A stretch of DNA of 57,199 nt from Clostridia bacterium (GTDB taxonomy: Bacteria; Bacillota; Clostridia; UMGS1883): contig JAZQAB010000092.1 of NCBI GenBank assembly GCA_045545055.1, positions 1 to 57,199 of the forward strand. Reading direction: 5' to 3'. This document shows positions 34,552-41,617 of the stretch, one piece after another. The notes beneath the pieces are model-generated. The model was not told the origin of the DNA, searched no databases, and worked only from the letters and a program-made list of their open reading frames with translations. A program made the translations under genes and the position numbers. The number at the start of each line of letters is the position of its first letter. The first letter of the stretch is position 1.

Positions 34552-34597
34552 AAAAAATGAAAGGAACATACCTTGCGGTACATTCCTTTCATTTTTT
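34552..34597 (-). terminator. Terminator downstream of ssrA
   Basis: AAAAAATGAAAGGAA...TTCCTTTCATTTTTT. Confidence 0.7.
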
Positions 34598-34944
34598 GGT
34601 GGAACCGAGGGGAGTCGAACCCCTGTCCGAAAACATATTCACACAGGCATCTCCGAGCACAGTCACTTATTAATCATTCCCTCCGCCGCAAGGCAAGTGA
34701 CAGCCCAAGCGGTTTTGGTAGCTTCATTCGTCATGCATGGTGCAAAGCTTAACCATGTCACGTTCACCACTGTGCGACGCTCTTATCCCGACCGTGGTCC
34801 TTCAGGTAAGAACGGCTGCACTAATTAGGCAGCGTAAGCTAAATTATTGTTAGCGTTTAAATTTAAAAATTGGGATTTTAACGCAGTTCCCACTGCGGCT
34901 CGCTTCCCATGCTTCAACATCCCCGTCGAAACCGGTACGGCCCC
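34597..34944 (-). ncRNA. ssrA: tmRNA, tag peptide (A)ANNNLAYAA
   Basis: 5' GGGGCCGTACCGGTTTCGAC, 3' GGGGTTCGACTCCCCTCGGTTCCACCA, tag ORF at 34854-34825. Downstream of smpB. Confidence 0.97.
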
Positions 34945-35012: not shown

Positions 35013-35483
35013 TTATTGGTTTTGCATTTTAAGGGTTCTTTCAATCATTCTGCCTGCATCTCTCTTTGCGGCATCATCACGCTTGTCATAAAGCTTTTTA
35101 CCTCTTGCCACAGCGATTGTGACCTTTACCCTCTGCCCTTTAAGGTACATATCAAGAGGGATAAGTGTCAGTCCCTTTTGCTTTACAGTGCCTAAAAGCT
35201 TCATAATCTCTCTTTTGTGCATTAAAAGTTTCTTTGGTCTTAAAGGGTCTTTATTAAAAATATTTCCTTTTTCATATGGAGAAATATGCATTCCGAGGAT
35301 AAACATTTCTCCGTTACTGTCTATTTCGCAATAGCTTTCTTTCAGATTTACTTTTCCCATACGGACGGATTTAACCTCTGTTCCGAAAAGCTCAATGCCT
35401 GCCTCGTACTTTTCTTCTATGAAGAACTCGTGATGTGCGCTTCTGTTTTGAGCCAGAAGCCTTCTTTGTTCTTTTTCTGCCAC
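35013..35483 (-). CDS. smpB: SsrA-binding protein SmpB
   Basis: [40 protein letters not shown] at 35483 after GAAGGAGG. Confidence 0.97.
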
Positions 35484-37566
35484 CTTGTTTGCCTCCTTCA
35501 AGAAGTTTAAAATCTATCCTGCGGCTTATCTTGTTTGCCGCCGTAAGCTTAACCTTTACGCTGTCACCAATTGTAAAGGTGTGTCCACTCCTCTCGCCGT
35601 AAAGCGAAAGCGTTTTTTCATCGAAAACATAGTAATCATCATTTAGTGTTTCTGCTCTTACCAAACCTTCAACAGTGTTAGGGAGCATAACAAAAAATCC
35701 AAATCCCGTCACGGAAGAAATCACTCCGTCAAAATCCTCACCCACAAAAGGCTGCATATATTCCGCTTTCTTAATATCAAGAGTATCTCTTTCGCACATT
35801 GCGGCAGCGTTTTCACGCTCACTACACTGTATTGCCGCTTCGTCAACAAAACTGCGGAGCTTCTTTTTCATGTTTGTATCATTTTCGATAGCCGCTTTTA
35901 ATGCCCTGTGACAAACAAGGTCGGGATATCTGCGGATGGGGGAGGTGAAATGACAGTAATCATCAAGTCCCAACCCAAAGTGGCCATCGTTTTTGCTGCT
36001 GTATTTAGCCTTTGCCATGCTTCTCAGGAGCATTGTGGAAATTGTGGATTCATACGCAGTTCCGCTTACATCTTCCATTATTTTGTTCAAATTGTGGGAT
36101 TTTCCATAACCCATATTATATATGAAATTCAGCGTATTTGCAAGCTTTTCCCGGTTGGGTTCGTCATGAACTCTGTAAATAGAAGAAATTTTCTTATTTT
36201 CCCACAAATATTTTGCCACGGCACTGTTTGCCGCAACCATAAATTCTTCTATAATTTTGTTTGCAAATGTGTTTTCTCGTAAGACGATATCTATGGTTTT
36301 TCCGTCCTTATCAAACACTGCCTTTGCTTCGGGTATATTAAAATCAATGCTTCCTCGCTCGGCAGTTTTTTTCGCAAGAAGCAAGTAAAGCTCATACATA
36401 TCGGAAAGCATGGGGAGAAGATGAGAATACTCACTGCATAAATCCTCAGGCTTTTCTTCAATTAAAAGCCGCACATTCTCATAGGTCATACGATTGGTGC
36501 TTTTAATATACGATTTATAAAATGATGAGGATAAGGCGTTGCCTTCCATATCGTAATCAATAAATGCCGACATCGTGAGCCTTACAACTCCCTCGTTAAG
36601 AGAGCAAACATCATTTGAAAGCTTTACGGGGAGCATGGGAAGAACCCTGTCCGCAAGATAAACGCTGGTTCCCCTTTTGAAAGCCTCCTTGTCAAGAAGT
36701 GAATCGGGCTTTACATAATTGCTGACATCTGCAATATGAACTCCAAGCCTGTATCCATTGTCAGTTCTTTCCACCGAAACGGCATCGTCAATGTCCTTTG
36801 TGTCAGCACCGTCAATTGTGATAATGGTTTTGTTGGTTAAATCCAGTCTGTCTTCAAAATCGCTGTCGCAGATTACGGCAACCTTTTGTGCTTCGTCAAG
36901 GACTTCCTTGGGAAACTCGGTGCTGAAATCATAGCTTTTTATTACAGAAAGCACATCTACACCGAAGTCATAAGGGAAGCCTAATACCTCTGTAATTTTA
37001 CAGGAAAGGGAGGTTGTTGGTGAATCGTACTCGGTTATTTCACAAACTACCTTCTGTCCGTTTAATGCTCCGTTCACATCTCTTTGCATAACGAATATTT
37101 CGTCGGGGAGTTTGTCATTGTCGGGAGTCACAATTCCATAGCCGCGTTCCTGTGTGAATATGCCCACTACTTTTTTATTGGTACGCTCAAGTATTTTTAA
37201 TATACTACCCTCACGCTTTTTTTCGCCGTGGGATTTTCTTTGGATTTTCACAAGAACCCTGTCACCGTTAAGAGCACCCATAACATTCTCGTCGGAAATA
37301 TGAATGTCTCCATCATCATTGATTACAAAACCAAAACCCTTACCCGTAGCACGAAATACGCCTTCAATAATCCCCATGGATTTTGAACTGAAGAGCCTTT
37401 TCTTTCTGCCCGAAATTATACTGCCCTCGTTTTCAAGCTCATTGATGATTCTTTCAAATTTATCCATTTCTTTTTGCGGTACGCATAAAAGCAAAGCAAT
37501 ATTTTCTTTTGTCATCGGTACATATTCATCGCTGTTTATAAATGCAAGTATTTTTTCTTTTTGCAA
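35392..37566 (-). CDS. rnr: Ribonuclease R
   Basis: [48 protein letters not shown]1 domain. Likely TTG at 37566; 3' end overlaps smpB. Confidence 0.96.
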
Positions 37567-37654
37567 AGGGATACCGCCTTTCAAAGTTTTACGAGGAATT
37601 TCTTCCACGGCAAAAAATAAAGGTGCTTTCCTTGAAAGCACCTTACAGGTTTTG

Positions 37655-37891
37655 TTATTTTACAATACCAAGAGAGAGCACAACCGAGAGAATAATGAAA
37701 AGAACCGCAAATATTGCTGTAAGCTTTTCGAGTAATGCTTCCCGTGTGTTTGACTTATTCTTGGAAAAGAATGTATCGCCGCTGCCGCCTGTTATAGCGC
37801 TTGCGCCTTGATCTTTACCTTTCTGGAACAAAACAATAACTGTAAGCAAAAGTGCTACTACAATATAAGTGATAGTCAACGCCATCTGCAT
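37655..37891 (-). CDS. secG: Preprotein translocase subunit SecG
   Basis: Two TM helices, VLFQKGK..G.SAITGG, LEKLT. secG-rnr-smpB synteny. Confidence 0.95.
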   Translation of the reverse strand: MQMALTITYIVVALLLTVIVLFQKGKDQGASAITGGSGDTFFSKNKSNTREALLEKLTAIFAVLFIILSVVLSLGIVK

Positions 37892-38086
37892 TTTACACAC
37901 CTCCGTTAGATTTCGCTTGTCATACTCTATTACTTTAGCATAAAACACAGATAATTGCAATACTTTTTTTAAAATTATTTCCTTATTTGCAAATATTTAA
38001 TCATTATTTGTGATTTTTGCTGTCCAATCTGTATTGATTCTGAGTGCAAATTGTGGTAGAATAGATTTAACAAGGTTAAATCTATT

Positions 38087-38152
38087 CAGCTAAATTGCCT
38101 ACGGCAGCTAAATGTGCTTCGCACGCTTTAAAAGCAAATTTAATTTAGCTAT
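38087..38152. repeat. GCTAAAT-hairpin element, left copy
   Basis: CAGCTAAATTGCCTACGGCAGCTAAATGTGCTTCGCACGC...TTTAATTTAGCTAT. Abuts the pnuC-like stop codon. Confidence 0.85.
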
Positions 38153-38841
38153 CAAATGAATTTGCTCTGTCTGATTCGCATTTTTTGCCAACTGATATAC
38201 CCGTAAATATCATTTATAAAAAATGAAACAAAGCATACGACAACGGAAATATAACGAATATCACATAAACTTGCAAGTAACCACAAAACAATCAGGATGA
38301 TGTCGTTGGCGGCGTAGGCGACAGCGAAGTATGGACTTCGTCTGAAAGTAAGATATACTGCCAGAAAGCTTGTTGTAACGGAAAGAGTGCTTGGAAGTAT
38401 GTTAGCGGTGTTGAAATGCTCTAATATGAAATAGAAGATAAGAGTAATTAAAGCAGTAATCACCCACATAAATATAGCTTCTTTTCTGTTAATACTGTTC
38501 ACCTTGACTTCTGCTTTGTTCCCGTTAAACGGATTTCTAAGCCAGGATATAAGGGCGAAAATTGCCATAGGCATCGTCATGCCAAGATAGGTTATCATCT
38601 CTCCGTAATAGGAAAAAGTATATGATATTATTCCATAGAGCAGACTGAAGATAACCATTAATAATTGCCCGAAGGGATTTCCTTTTGCGTTGAAAATAAG
38701 GGAAGTAACGCCAATAAGTGATGCGCATAATGTCAGATAGTTTTCTTTGTCAAAAAGGCAAAAGGAAGCAATTATAAGAATTACAGAAGTTGACCATATA
38801 AAAATATCGTTTTTTGAAAAATAGGTTTTTATTTTATGCAT
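38152..38841 (-). CDS. PnuC-like (nicotinamide mononucleotide transporter family) membrane protein
   Basis: Multi-TM. SLIGVTSLIFNAKGNPFGQ, LYGIISY...YYGE, DIYGYISW. Confidence 0.82.
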   Translation of the reverse strand: MHKIKTYFSKNDIFIWSTSVILIIASFCLFDKENYLTLCASLIGVTSLIFNAKGNPFGQLLMVIFSLLYGIISYTFSYYGEMITYLGMTMPMAIFALISWLRNPFNGNKAEVKVNSINRKEAIFMWVITALITLIFYFILEHFNTANILPSTLSVTTSFLAVYLTFRRSPYFAVAYAANDIILIVLWLLASLCDIRYISVVVCFVSFFINDIYGYISWQKMRIRQSKFI

Positions 38842-38853
38842 AGTTTTTCCTCC

Positions 38854-38952
38854 AAAAAAAAATAAACATTCAAATGCATATCTTCAAAGACCTAACGATA
38901 TACAGACGAATGCTAAGCATTAACTACCCGGTGGCAGCTTTCATATTCAATT
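38854..38952 (-). ncRNA. Guanidine-IV riboswitch (mepA / GGAM-1 motif)
   Basis: P1 AGCTGCC-ACCG-GGTAGTT (CCACCGGG signature). Terminator AGCATTC..TGTATATC-[GTTAGGTCTTTGAA]-GATATGCA..GAATGTT + U-tract. Loop ACC/GGT complementarity. PnuC-like genes are known clients of this class. Confidence 0.82.
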
Positions 38953-38958
38953 TATTGC

Positions 38959-38987
38959 ATTATAGCATATAACATTGCGAAAGTCAA
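38959..38987 (-). promoter_or_regulatory. SigA promoter of the riboswitch-pnuC unit
   Basis: TTGACT-17-TATAAT with TGn extension. Confidence 0.75.
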
Positions 38988-39031
38988 TGAAAAATATTGC
39001 GTTTAGCTTTTTTCAGACTTAACACGAACTA

Positions 39032-39203
39032 TTGCGGTGCATAGCACCGCAGCTAAATTCGCTAATGCGAGCTAAATTGAGTAAACTCAGCTAAATTGCC
39101 TTGCGGCAGCTAAATGTGTTTTGCACGCTAAATGCGAATTTAATTTAGCTATGGAGCGAAGCGGAATAATTTAGCTTTGCAACTTGTTGCAAAATTTAGC
39201 TAA
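39032..39203. repeat. GCTAAAT-hairpin element, full right copy
   Basis: Five GCTAAAT units separated by mini-hairpins, facing three inverted ATTTAGC units. 39088-39152 directly repeats 38087-38152. Confidence 0.88.
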
Positions 39204-39277
39204 AACAAGTTGCATATAAACCTTATGTGTCGCAATCATGTTCTAAACATTAATAAATATCTGTAAGGAGAAAATCC

Positions 39278-41617
39278 ATGAAAACAAAGAGAATCCTTTC
39301 GTTTTTGATTTCAACTTTAATATTATTTTCCACATCAGTTTCCTTTGCACAGGGGGAATATGCAACGCGTGGAGAGGTAGCCTCCATGCTTTTGCAGGCT
39401 GCCGATTTTTATAACGAGGGAGTTATGAAAAGCGACATTTTAAAAGGCTATGAGGACGGACTGTTGCACGAGGAACGCCCCGTTACCCGTGCCGAGGCAT
39501 TGGTAATGCTTAAAAGGGCTTTCAAAACTGTTCCGACACCGGTAGGGCACAATGCTCGTACTGCACTTTCCTCTGAAGCGTTTTCGGATATTCCTATGTG
39601 GGCAGAAAACGAGCTTAGTGAAATTTTTTCCGCAGGTTTGGTTGCAGGAACTGCTCCTGAAACCTTTTCACCGCAAGCAAGCGTTAACAAGGAGCAAATG
39701 AAGCTTTTTATAGAGCGTATGTATTCTTTGCAGGGTAGAAACGAAAAGGATGATTTTTATGCATCGGTTAATAAAAATGCTCTTGAAAAGATGGATTTGC
39801 TTACGGGAAATCCTGTCAACGGGACAATAGAATCGCTTTCTTTTGAATCTAACGGTAATGTTGATAAAATAATAAAAGAAATAGTTAATCAAAACCATAC
39901 TGAGGGTAGCGTGAAACAGAAAATAGCAGATTTTTATAAATCTGCGGCAGACGTTAAAAATCGCAATAAAACAGGAATAAAACCTATAGAAAAGTATCTT
40001 GAAAAAATAGATTCGGCAAAGAATATAGGGGAGCTTACAGTGCTTCATTCTATTTTAACAGAGGAGCTATGCATATTTCCGTTTTTGGAATTTCAATTAA
40101 CCTATGATTTAGAGGAGGGCAAGGAGTATCTTTTATATCTTTCAGTCCTGACGCCTTTAGCTCCGAAAGAAACCTACACGTACGGAAAGAACAAGGAGGA
40201 ATATCTTGAATATATAAGCACTCTGTTTTCGCTTTTAGGTGATGATGAATTATCGTCACAGAAAAATGCACACGTCTTTTTTGAATTTGAAAAAACACTA
40301 TCGGAAAACATGCTTGATAAGAAAGAAAGTAGTAATATTCAATCGGTTTATAATGTTTTATCCTATAACAAAATATGCTCGCTTTTCCCGGATTTTGATA
40401 TGGAAAGGCTGATTAATTCCTGCGGCTTTGAATCGGAGGAGAAAATAGTCGTGTCTGACACAAGGCTTTTGGAAGCATTTTCTCATATGTACAGTCAGTC
40501 AAATCTTGAAGCGTTAAAGCTTGCGATGAAAATAATGCTTGCGGTAAAAATCGGAGAAACACTCAATGAAGATTTTCTTCGAGCATCAGTAGAATTTGAC
40601 AATGCCATTACGGGAATTGACAGTGAGTATATTATTGAGGACTATATTTTAAGTGTGCTTGATACGGCTATGCCGGATTATCTCTCGGAGGTCTATTCGG
40701 CACAATATTTTGATGAAGAGTCCAAGCGTGATGTTGAGAGAATGACCCATGAGATTATCGGAATCTTTAAAAAACGCATAGACGCACTTACTTGGATGAA
40801 TGAAGAAACGAAGACAAAAGCAAAGACAAAGCTTGATTCAATGGGGGTTAAAATAGGTTATCCCGACAGCTTTGATTCGTATCTTGACAACGTTACAATT
40901 CGTTCTCCAAAGCAGGGTGGAACATATTTTGACAATATGATAAAAATTAACAAGGCTCGCAGGGATTATTACGCAAAGATGCAAAAATCCGAGCCTGACC
41001 GCACAGTGTGGTTTCTCACTCCGTATACGGTGAACGCTGTGTATAATTCTGCCACAAATGATATAACGCTTCCTGCCGCAGTCCTGCAGAAACCGCTGTA
41101 TGATAAAAATGCTCCTTATGAGAAAAATCTTGGAGGTATAGGCTTTATCATTGCACACGAAATAACTCACGCATTTGACGCTAACGGTGCACTTTTTGAT
41201 GAAAACGGGAATATGCAGGATTGGTGGAGTGATGAAGACAGAGCGGAGTTTTCAAAGCTCTGTGCAAAGGTTTCAAGTCTTTATGACGGCTGTGAGGCAG
41301 TGCCCGGGATTCAGAATGACGGAATACTTACCCTTAATGAAAATATTGCCGATTTGGGAGCGGCATCGTGCATTACCCAGCTTGCTAATGAAAAGAAGCT
41401 TGACCATAAGCTGATGTACAAAGCATTTGCCGAGGTTTGGGCAGGAACCGCAACTCGCGAGTTTTATGAGTATCTTTCACTTAATGATGTTCACAGCAGC
41501 GGTAAGATTCGAGTAAACAGAACCCTTATGAATCTTCCCGAATTTTATGAAGCTTTTGAAATTAAGCAGGGCGATGGTATGTACCTACCGATTGAGGAAA
41601 GAGTAATTATATGGTAA
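39278..41617 (+). CDS. M13 (neprilysin/PepO-like) metallopeptidase with N-terminal SLH domains
   Basis: Signal peptide, SLH motifs (GYEDG..H.ERPVTRAEA), DDFY..VN, VNAVY, HEITH, ENIAD. Confidence 0.9.
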   Translation: MKTKRILSFLISTLILFSTSVSFAQGEYATRGEVASMLLQAADFYNEGVMKSDILKGYEDGLLHEERPVTRAEALVMLKRAFKTVPTPVGHNARTALSSEAFSDIPMWAENELSEIFSAGLVAGTAPETFSPQASVNKEQMKLFIERMYSLQGRNEKDDFYASVNKNALEKMDLLTGNPVNGTIESLSFESNGNVDKIIKEIVNQNHTEGSVKQKIADFYKSAADVKNRNKTGIKPIEKYLEKIDSAKNIGELTVLHSILTEELCIFPFLEFQLTYDLEEGKEYLLYLSVLTPLAPKETYTYGKNKEEYLEYISTLFSLLGDDELSSQKNAHVFFEFEKTLSENMLDKKESSNIQSVYNVLSYNKICSLFPDFDMERLINSCGFESEEKIVVSDTRLLEAFSHMYSQSNLEALKLAMKIMLAVKIGETLNEDFLRASVEFDNAITGIDSEYIIEDYILSVLDTAMPDYLSEVYSAQYFDEESKRDVERMTHEIIGIFKKRIDALTWMNEETKTKAKTKLDSMGVKIGYPDSFDSYLDNVTIRSPKQGGTYFDNMIKINKARRDYYAKMQKSEPDRTVWFLTPYTVNAVYNSATNDITLPAAVLQKPLYDKNAPYEKNLGGIGFIIAHEITHAFDANGALFDENGNMQDWWSDEDRAEFSKLCAKVSSLYDGCEAVPGIQNDGILTLNENIADLGAASCITQLANEKKLDHKLMYKAFAEVWAGTATREFYEYLSLNDVHSSGKIRVNRTLMNLPEFYEAFEIKQGDGMYLPIEERVIIW

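Follow-up and report, generated by a model that had tools for sequence, protein, structure and literature searches.

Correia repeat-enclosed elements of Neisseria are promoter-active miniature inverted-repeat transposable elements (MITEs). They are short, non-coding, multi-copy and hairpin-forming, and their ends make or restore −10-like boxes. Repetitive extragenic palindromes and bacterial interspersed mosaic elements (REP/BIME) combine a conserved single-stranded word with a hairpin, the sequence of which is conserved within a genome, and go together with REP-associated tyrosine transposases (RAYT). In BOX elements of Streptococcus pneumoniae, the end modules are fixed and the number of internal units between them varies; we know of no link between BOX elements and a four-helix-bundle gene. 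The insertion of a gene next to or between dispersed repeats is an already known kind of event. The locus described here lies on a 57,199-nucleotide stretch of a Clostridia bacterium genome (assembly GCA_045545055.1, contig JAZQAB010000092.1), hereafter the window. Between secG and the gene for an SLH-domain M13 peptidase, a minus-strand pnuC-type transporter gene with its own promoter and leader RNA is bracketed by two members of a repeat family built on the word AGCTAAAT: element a on the left and element b on the right. G000 denotes the window's own genome, other G-numbers are related genomes, L-numbers are fetched loci, metagenome ones included, and C stands for contig.

A canonical family member starts with a boundary hairpin, designated h0. 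From there, AGCTAAAT words, two to four in number and each with a hairpin, lead to a centre, GCTAAA.GCGAATTTA, which is followed by one to four inverted words with hairpins and a promoter-like tail containing TTGCATCTAAA. The hairpins are perfect yet hypervariable, with 146 distinct forward-arm spacers and 589 of 628 positions paired. The family shares several traits with MITEs: it is short, non-coding and multi-copy, with seven clustered copies in G000, and pairs of filled and empty sites were found at three loci. It resembles Correia elements in intergenic insertion, in empty sites and in the transcription of neighbouring genes through or from the element ends. It differs in the alternation of an 8-nt word with hypervariable hairpins, in weak terminal inverted repeats, in the presence of a PF05635 gene beside many copies and in that no IS630-type transposase is linked to it, the transposase search having covered Y1_Tnp only. 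Clusters of direct and inverted units and a very high density in some genomes (G055) recall REP/BIME; the variety of forward spacers and the absence of AGCTAAAT from all three Y1_Tnp genes of G000 set the family apart. Mobilisation by a RAYT was dismissed, as none of these three genes lies at a AGCTAAAT cluster and their flanks hold other hairpins. At G000:C68:5516-6277 and G000:C1:395-1225, Y1_Tnp (IS200/RAYT-like) genes coding for 250–280 amino acids have inverted TTTGGGGACTGTCCCCAAA-type hairpins on their flanks. With BOX elements the family shares the modular build; BOX consists of other units and has no constant linker word with variable palindromes. The repeat family was not found described in the open-access literature, and Rfam 15 gave no match for the arrays. 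To judge from open-access text and Rfam 15, the repeat family, its PF05635 link and the pnuC leader may be new. A constant word, perfect hypervariable hairpins and insertion at −10 boxes would make up an unusual set of rules for a repeat family.

SecG is present in 26 of 39 genus genomes, G000 included, which left 25 other loci for comparison. The M13 gene lies directly beside secG in 13 of these, where neither a AGCTAAAT word nor pnuC is found. pnuC occurs at none of the 25 secG loci, and AGCTAAAT arrays are present at the secG/M13 locus of G048 only. PnuC homologues were detected in 17 of 41 related genomes, again including G000. Among the inspected pnuC loci, 11 from relatives and 80 from metagenomes, not one is located beside secG, RNase R or M13. 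This comparison shows the pnuC unit to be a lineage-specific insertion in the short secG/M13 spacer. The sequence-only reading had suggested looking for an empty site between secG and M13, and empty sites exist in the 13 relatives; what it had named as speaking against an insertion, a pnuC gene conserved here in relatives that lack the repeats, was seen at none of the 25 loci. The gap holds other genes in other genomes. In G048 it contains an array, a PF05635 four-helix-bundle gene and an ion-channel gene, and in G021 an amidohydrolase gene and another open reading frame (ORF) without arrays. In both genomes, the M13 gene and then the same ABC-transporter gene follow beyond the gap. Judged by gene content, the secG/M13 gap is a variable spot.

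The empty site of G012 defines the point of insertion. G012 proteins are 99% (SecG), 92% (RNase R) and 84% (M13) identical to those of G000. Ahead of the peptidase gene, G012 has the identical −35 box and 17-nt spacer, then TATAAT, and the ribosome-binding site (RBS) of the peptidase 25 nt later. The position directly before this RBS identifies the plus-strand promoter left of element a as the native promoter of the peptidase gene. From the window alone, it had been noted that a collapse of the two repeats would put this promoter-like sequence upstream of the M13 gene, and the empty site bears this out. In the window, the −35 box and spacer are native and the −10 box abuts or overlaps the first bases of element a. 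The inserted block, from about 38059 to 39238, starts exactly at this −10 box. It leaves the peptidase gene 1.2 kb from its native promoter, with pnuC in convergent orientation to it, and the two transcription units may interfere with each other. The locus would offer a clear-cut case from nature in which a small, regulated gene for a transporter lies inside the promoter of another gene. Empty, single-element and composite states survive in related genomes, which makes the steps reconstructable and testable.

The direct repeat around the pnuC unit consists of positions 38086-38152 and 39087-39152 (about 67 nt), with three matching blocks and small gaps between them. The window contains AGCTAAAT 13 times, compared with 3.98 ± 1.81 in shuffled sequences, and 0 of 100 shuffles reached 13. 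The pnuC stop codon TGA occupies 38152-38154 (TCA on the plus strand). It shares its first plus-strand base with the end of the left repeat, and a single base separates it from the inverted word at 38143-38150. The sequence-only reading had recorded both a direct repeat of about 65 bp and a stop codon at the edge of its left copy. Both observations stand, with the cores of elements a and b (64 and 63 nt) being 89% identical. Its description as a repeat-bounded cassette holds in part: the bracketing is real, but the repeats are not copies of each other and bracketing alone is no sign of a cassette. When elements a and b were compared with 73 other family cores, 25 were nearer to a than b is, and 15 were nearer to b than a is. 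The two cores differ at no fewer than 7 positions, and their longest identical run is 16 nt. The end types differ as well. The boundary hairpin of element a (h0a) is that of a promoter-abutting subfamily, and the left end of element b (module X and boundary hairpin h0b) belongs to the subfamily of the copy on G000:C40. In element a, two forward words precede the centre and a single inverted word follows it; the inverted arm and the tail are missing. Element b has module X, a TGCGGTGC-type h0 and a full array minus one unit, like the G000:C40 copy. Core and end type show elements a and b to be two different family members of separate ancestry. Since they are not each other's nearest kin, the direct repeat is best taken as the conserved core of the family and not as a duplication made by the insertion.

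The pnuC product is a predicted member of the PnuC transporter family. It matches PF04973 (NMN_transporter) with E = 3.9e-34 and 118.6 bits (cut-off 27.3) over profile positions 2-175 of 175, and NCBIfam TIGR01528 PnuC with 62.2 bits (cut-off 42.45). The unit of promoter, terminator-type leader (110 nt) and gene covers 38152-38988 on the minus strand. Its nearest relative at the DNA level is the metagenome locus L207 (84% of nucleotides and 87% of amino acids identical). Homology to L207 spans 38988 to 38161 only, from the −35 box to 7 nt short of the stop codon, and stops within the last three codons of pnuC. This confinement marks the unit as discrete. The earlier view of a self-contained minus-strand unit is sustained by the homology block and by the unit's own promoter (11/12), leader and gene. 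Direct repeats of 27 nt enclose the unit in L207; they are tail modules in reverse complement, each with a module X. In L208, pnuC is followed by an array-less X-to-tail module and then by a gene whose orthologue in G000 (G000:C33:4425-5643) stands at a locus lacking pnuC. In G053, whose PnuC is 83% identical, the pnuC promoter comes after module X, h0 and an array built on TCGATAT, a sibling word, and a tail lies beyond the gene. These three loci show an association of this pnuC clade with modules of the family or of a sibling family.

The association bears on a coincidence of events, in which pnuC arrived by another route and two family members inserted later on either side. The different subfamilies of elements a and b, which are not closest kin, agree with this. 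So does the preference of the family for −10 boxes and terminators: a perfect stem of at least 7 bp ends at most 3 nt from the first word in 58 of 85 copies and at a control offset in 0 of 85, and many of these boundary stems are terminators after tRNA genes. The gap is also variable without arrays, as in G021. Coincidence leaves unexplained, though, that the nearest pnuC units are bracketed by family modules elsewhere, and that the elements abut the unit tightly, with gaps of 1 nt at the stop codon and 7 nt at the −35 box. Such independent later insertions are improbable.

Recombination among family elements is the most likely way in which pnuC moved. The −10 box of the peptidase promoter would first have carried a short resident element. 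DNA bearing pnuC together with another family member would then have recombined with the resident element through the shared core. The resulting order would be h0a, core, pnuC (reversed), X–h0b, array, tail and peptidase gene. For this insertion by recombination between the resident element and pnuC-bearing DNA, we estimate a probability of roughly 45%; we infer both the route and the order of events from the arrangement of modules. With respect to the repeat-bounded insertion proposed from the window alone, the insertion itself is upheld by the comparison with kin and their empty sites, and the repeats may have been its cause.

Several points weigh against recombination. Element a stops one base before the pnuC stop codon, without inverted arm or tail; with this truncation, a simple crossover does not produce the junction. 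An imperfect inverted repeat across the left junction, AGCAAATTTAATTT versus AGCAAATTCATTTGA, hints at another kind of event. Among the 80 metagenome pnuC loci, none has a AGCTAAAT array, and a donor with the exact junction was not found among them. The genus genomes are kin, so counts among them are not counts of independent events. In G055:C21 (L201-L203), a 186-kb contig of another Clostridia metagenome-assembled genome (MAG), most of the gaps between housekeeping genes (topA, dprA, gidB, trmFO-like) are taken up by one-directional arrays, so that bracketing by arrays alone is no mark of a cassette. G000 is a draft assembly of 130 contigs, and no single public contig bridges the block; the contigs, from four runs, are short and break inside arrays. 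The G055 contig holds all listed word pairs of its genome, about 69. AGCTAAAT words are also absent from the 11 pnuC loci of relatives. A public-run contig that joins 38087 to 39070 (30 nt on its shorter side) was not used. It was ascribed to another family member as the most likely source, because h0a is present at many sites.

The same contig breaks are relevant to an assembly artefact, in which the assembler would have joined pnuC into the secG/M13 locus through the repeat words. Besides the draft state, the breaks within arrays (e.g., at 38106) and the lack of a public contig across the block would allow this. The divergence of the two cores and their short identical run make a collapsed-repeat loop unlikely; each array is shorter than a read, and both flanks of the contig are collinear with relatives. 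In one run, possibly the source sample, 37650-38106 and 38106-38362 are both covered at similar depth with 3 differences each. An artefact is very improbable.

The main rival to recombination is an insertion in one step. Here, the block from h0a to the tail would be a single composite MITE-like element, moved in trans onto the −10 box of the peptidase promoter, with pnuC and the inner element as cargo. The G048 insert at the same promoter resembles such a composite: h0 and an array on the left, a tail on the right and two genes between them. The promoter reads TATAAT, insert, TATAAT in G048 and has a single TATAAT in G012, and the G000 tail and 5′ untranslated region (UTR) ahead of M13 align with those of G048. 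A −10-like hexamer follows the tail in 4 of 4 copies with the right end in view. A second pair of filled and empty sites has the hexamer on both sides of the element. At G015:C29, where 267 nt correspond to 29 nt in G043, the filled site reads TTGAAA-17-TAGAAT, element, TAGAAT, UTR and the empty site TTGAAA-17-TAAAAT, UTR. In G000 itself, the tail is followed by a degenerate hexamer, AATCAT or TCATGT in place of TATAAT, which speaks against one step. Further points against it are the weak terminal inverted repeats (4–6 bases by eye), the lack of a linked transposase in the search for Y1_Tnp, the other hairpins at the three Y1_Tnp genes of G000, and the failure to find the same composite elsewhere. 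The sequence-only reading had suggested a search for the same cassette at other GCTAAAT elements; the composite was not found elsewhere in the genus genomes, among the stretches listed from the scan of one genome per species or in the metagenome loci. Insertion in one step is rather unlikely. It is still less doubtful than independent later insertions or a purely regulatory role of the arrays, both of which are also less likely than recombination.

The sites of other copies indicate how the family may insert. A TTGNNN motif lies exactly 17 nt ahead of the h0-abutting hexamer in 10 of 10 copies from two promoter-abutting subfamilies, and the spacers are unrelated. The h0a hairpin follows an identical TAGAAT at seven further genomic sites, all in other genomes. 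We read the family as inserting at −10 boxes with a putative short duplication of TA or of the hexamer. At the phosphofructokinase (PFK)/MutS2 site, 250 nt in G000 correspond to 13 nt in G012 and 0 nt in G016. At G000:C109:16491-16560 (L001), the left arm of the boundary hairpin is formed by the last codons of the phosphofructokinase gene. The end of this protein is LPTHIKL* in relatives and LPMHIKLR* in G000, and the arm is now a perfect complement of the right arm. A rule by which every left h0 arm would be native flank, with the right arm copied from it, was dropped for the promoter-abutting subfamily, which has the same h0 at 8 sites; it still fits the PFK site.

Other described types of gene capture were considered for the locus. 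An integron cassette with attC does not match, as pnuC has its own promoter and leader and the flanks are multi-hairpin arrays instead of one imperfect palindrome; no search for intI was made. A composite transposon or IS26-type unit was rejected, since the flanks (94 and about 240 nt) contain no ORF, are 89% alike and are not nearest kin.

Pairs of the word were found in 14 of 39 genus genomes, and a reversed-pattern control gave 0 in all of them. A scan with one genome per species yielded at least 124 stretches. Among the matches listed, most were in gut or rumen Clostridia MAGs, and Ruminococcus, Oscillospiraceae and Acutalibacteraceae were represented. Arrays of the sibling word TCGATAT with the hairpin types of AGCTAAAT arrays were seen in L113 (after a second h0) and at L323:1220-1420. 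They can directly adjoin AGCTAAAT arrays, an arrangement suggestive of nesting or of insertion in tandem. Counts were not based on simple regular-expression searches for the tail and X modules, whose 21 and 2 hits in G000 are near chance. The single-sequence fold of the array was weakly informative (z = −2.68). A ladder of four-way junctions was discarded as a model of the array because it is not the minimum-energy fold.

The arrays could also be mainly functional cis elements, acting as 5′ UTR, terminator, insulator or binding site of the four-helix-bundle protein and kept by selection; their placement around pnuC would then be a matter of regulation and not of mobility. Their polarity relative to neighbouring genes would fit such a role (same orientation as the downstream gene in 37 of 48 cases and as the upstream gene in 35 of 51), as would hairpins that remain perfect while their sequence varies and the match of protein clusters to words described below. 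Forward-arm hairpins show no clear strand bias, though, with G–T in 8 and A–C in 13 cases (17 and 3 in the inverted arm). Filled and empty sites represent gain or loss as units, and the genes adjoining the copies are functionally unrelated. A cis function is compatible with mobility and hence not exclusive of it. As the main explanation of the arrays it is quite improbable, less probable even than coincidence.

Many copies of the family have a gene for a PF05635 / TIGR02436 four-helix-bundle protein as neighbour. The gene starts 25–200 nt after the inverted arm at 10 distinct places, which are different genomic sites, and the array-linked products are 57–100% identical to the G048 protein. The genus has 29 PF05635 loci (L199, L200, L292-L319). 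Seven of them have GCTAAAT arrays upstream, eight have arrays of other words (GTGGTAT, G/TCGATAT, ATGAAGT, ATATCAC, ATGAATA, ATGAAAT), and six genes lie between inverted repeats like an ORF in a stem-loop. At the remaining eight, the scripted search found nothing; one of these (G000:C12) shows an ATGAAG array by eye. Protein clusters correspond to the array words: GCTAAAT in 7 of 7 cases, flanking repeats in 6 of 6, CGATAT in 2 of 2 and ATGAAG in 2 of 3. This shows co-inheritance of PF05635 proteins and array words and is compatible with a specific recognition of the word. A single genome can have as many as 7 PF05635 genes, and the words across clusters also include GCGGAAT. G000 has two PF05635 genes without a AGCTAAAT array. 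The gene at C12:718-1020 (L200) follows an ATGAAG/CTTCAT array, and the gene at G000:C85:5700-6200 (L199) is enclosed by inverted GCGGAATG words, which overlap its first codons.

According to PMC10053308, PF05635 proteins resemble Avd, the accessory protein of diversity-generating retroelements, and ORFs in intervening sequences of 23S rRNA. The likeness lies in the PF05635 / TIGR02436 protein as array neighbour and in copies inside inverted repeats, and the difference in the position of the arrays outside rRNA. A reverse transcriptase or a pair of template and variable repeats did not turn up, and no search for them was made. A link between PF05635-type proteins and repeats was not found described in the open-access literature. 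The tie of the family to these proteins, first seen in 23S rRNA intervening sequences, would bear on their role beyond diversity-generating retroelements. A farther-reaching view is speculative and on balance unlikely: the arrays would be the non-coding body of an unrecognised class of mobile elements of gut Clostridia, with the PF05635 partner reading a clade-specific word. Such elements would home to −10 boxes and tRNA terminators, restore a promoter at the far end, nest in each other and relocate genes via shared cores, and the pnuC leader would represent a new class of terminator-embedded riboswitch. If this were true, small self-contained genes such as the pnuC unit would be picked up and relocated by shared cores.

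The pnuC leader has three parts: a P1 hairpin (CUGCC-ACCG-GGUAG), a variable hairpin and an intrinsic terminator with the conserved loop CGUUAGGUCUUWGAAG. In the window (38854-38939), the loops are ACCG and GUUAGGUC. An alignment of 49 distinct leaders gave a consensus of a 5-bp hairpin and a 16-bp terminator stem with the conserved loop and a U run; the RBS comes after the terminator. Twelve of the 21 consensus pairs have compensatory changes. The motif CUGCCACCGGGUAG together with the conserved loop precedes pnuC at 9 of 10 loci of relatives and at 62 of 80 metagenome loci. The covariance model of the leader matched 27 of 87 genomes of the order, including G000 with one copy, and outside G000 a PnuC homologue lies within 900 nt downstream in 25 of 27 matches. 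The single-sequence fold is weakly informative (z = −1.83). Rfam 15, the completeness of the release not having been checked, gave no relevant match at E up to 10 for 37850-39350 and 38830-38960, and none for the leader in 10 homologous loci at E up to 0.1. We call the leader a candidate riboswitch-like regulatory RNA. The riboswitch named in the sequence-only reading is retained as a conserved structured RNA, but no class of Rfam 15 matches it.

Two described riboswitches are closest in gene association or build. The NAD+-II riboswitch (pnuC motif) of Streptococcus has P1, P1a, a conserved internal bulge and an RBS pseudoknot for translational control, according to PMC7749635 and PMC8632094. 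In both cases, the RNA precedes pnuC genes annotated as nicotinamide riboside transporters (PMC7749635, PMC8632094). The leader described here is a hairpin plus terminator in gut Clostridia; with the RBS after the terminator and without the P1/P1a and RBS-pseudoknot build, it was not assigned to NAD+-II. In the hydroxymethylpyrimidine pyrophosphate (HMP-PP) riboswitch (thiS motif), the aptamer is embedded in the terminator and associated with thiamin genes, according to PMC6478431. The likeness is that the terminator loop contains the most conserved nucleotides of the leader and that a small hairpin precedes the terminator. The leader differs in having no Rfam match and in being followed by pnuC and not by thiamin biosynthesis genes. 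A third pnuC-linked riboswitch was not found described in the open-access literature. The leader, widely distributed in gut metagenomes of humans and animals, is well supported as a candidate for a new regulatory RNA linked to pnuC. In human-gut metagenome contigs (L214-L234, e.g., L215:1838-2403), a second copy of the leader lies ahead of a gene for a 166-aa Pyridox_ox_2/PNPOx/Nim-like protein. This Nim-like gene, below the NCBIfam cut-off, is directly upstream of leader and pnuC and near MobA-type relaxase and TubZ-like genes. These second copies place leader and pnuC also on mobilisable DNA and indicate a regulon wider than pnuC.

The features of the region are collected in Table 1.

Table 1. 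Features of the secG–pnuC–M13 region in window coordinates.
Feature	Position	Strand	Basis or remark
RNase R	35392-37641	-	left of secG
secG, conserved left neighbour	37655..37885	-	Pfam SecG E = 1e-19; protein 99% identical in G012 and G021
Native M13 promoter TTGATT-17-TAGAAT, TG-extended	38034..38062	+	score 9/12; −35 box and spacer also in G012, G021 and G048
Boundary hairpin h0a, GAATAGATTTAAC / GTTAAATCTATTC, perfect 13 bp	38059..38087	+	left end of the inserted block
Left array, element a (short form)	38088..38151	+	word, hairpin, word, hairpin, centre, single inverted word
Gene for PnuC-family transporter, 229 aa	38152..38841	-	ORF and profile matches
Conserved leader RNA	38854..38939	-	covariance model match, 88.3 bits
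pnuC promoter TTGACT-17-TATAAT, TG-extended	38959..38987	-	score 11/12; within the block homologous to L207
Module X of element b	38995..39032	+	upstream flank in other family members too; aligns with the G000:C40 copy, L207 and L208
Boundary hairpin h0b, TGCGGTGC-ata-GCACCGCA	39033..39051	+	type also in G000:C40, L113 and L167
Right array, element b	39051..39201	+	four forward words with hairpins, centre, three inverted words with hairpins
Tail module TTGCATATAAACC...	39202..39238	+	right end of the inserted block; homologous to the pre-peptidase stretch in G048
Gene for SLH-domain M13 peptidase, conserved right neighbour	39278..41617	+	Pfam Peptidase_M13_N, Peptidase_M13, SLH

Promoter-like sites are not enriched across the region (8 compared with 6.4 ± 2.4 expected), and the case for the two promoters therefore rests on their conservation in relatives. 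Between 37600 and 39400, no classical terminator was scored after pnuC, and the 3′ end of the gene runs into the left array. The sole terminator-like site scored in this interval is at 37620-37644 on the minus strand, after RNase R. Farther left, a tmRNA gene at 34597-34944 on the minus strand (RF00023, 153 bits) is the only Rfam match of the window at the gathering score.

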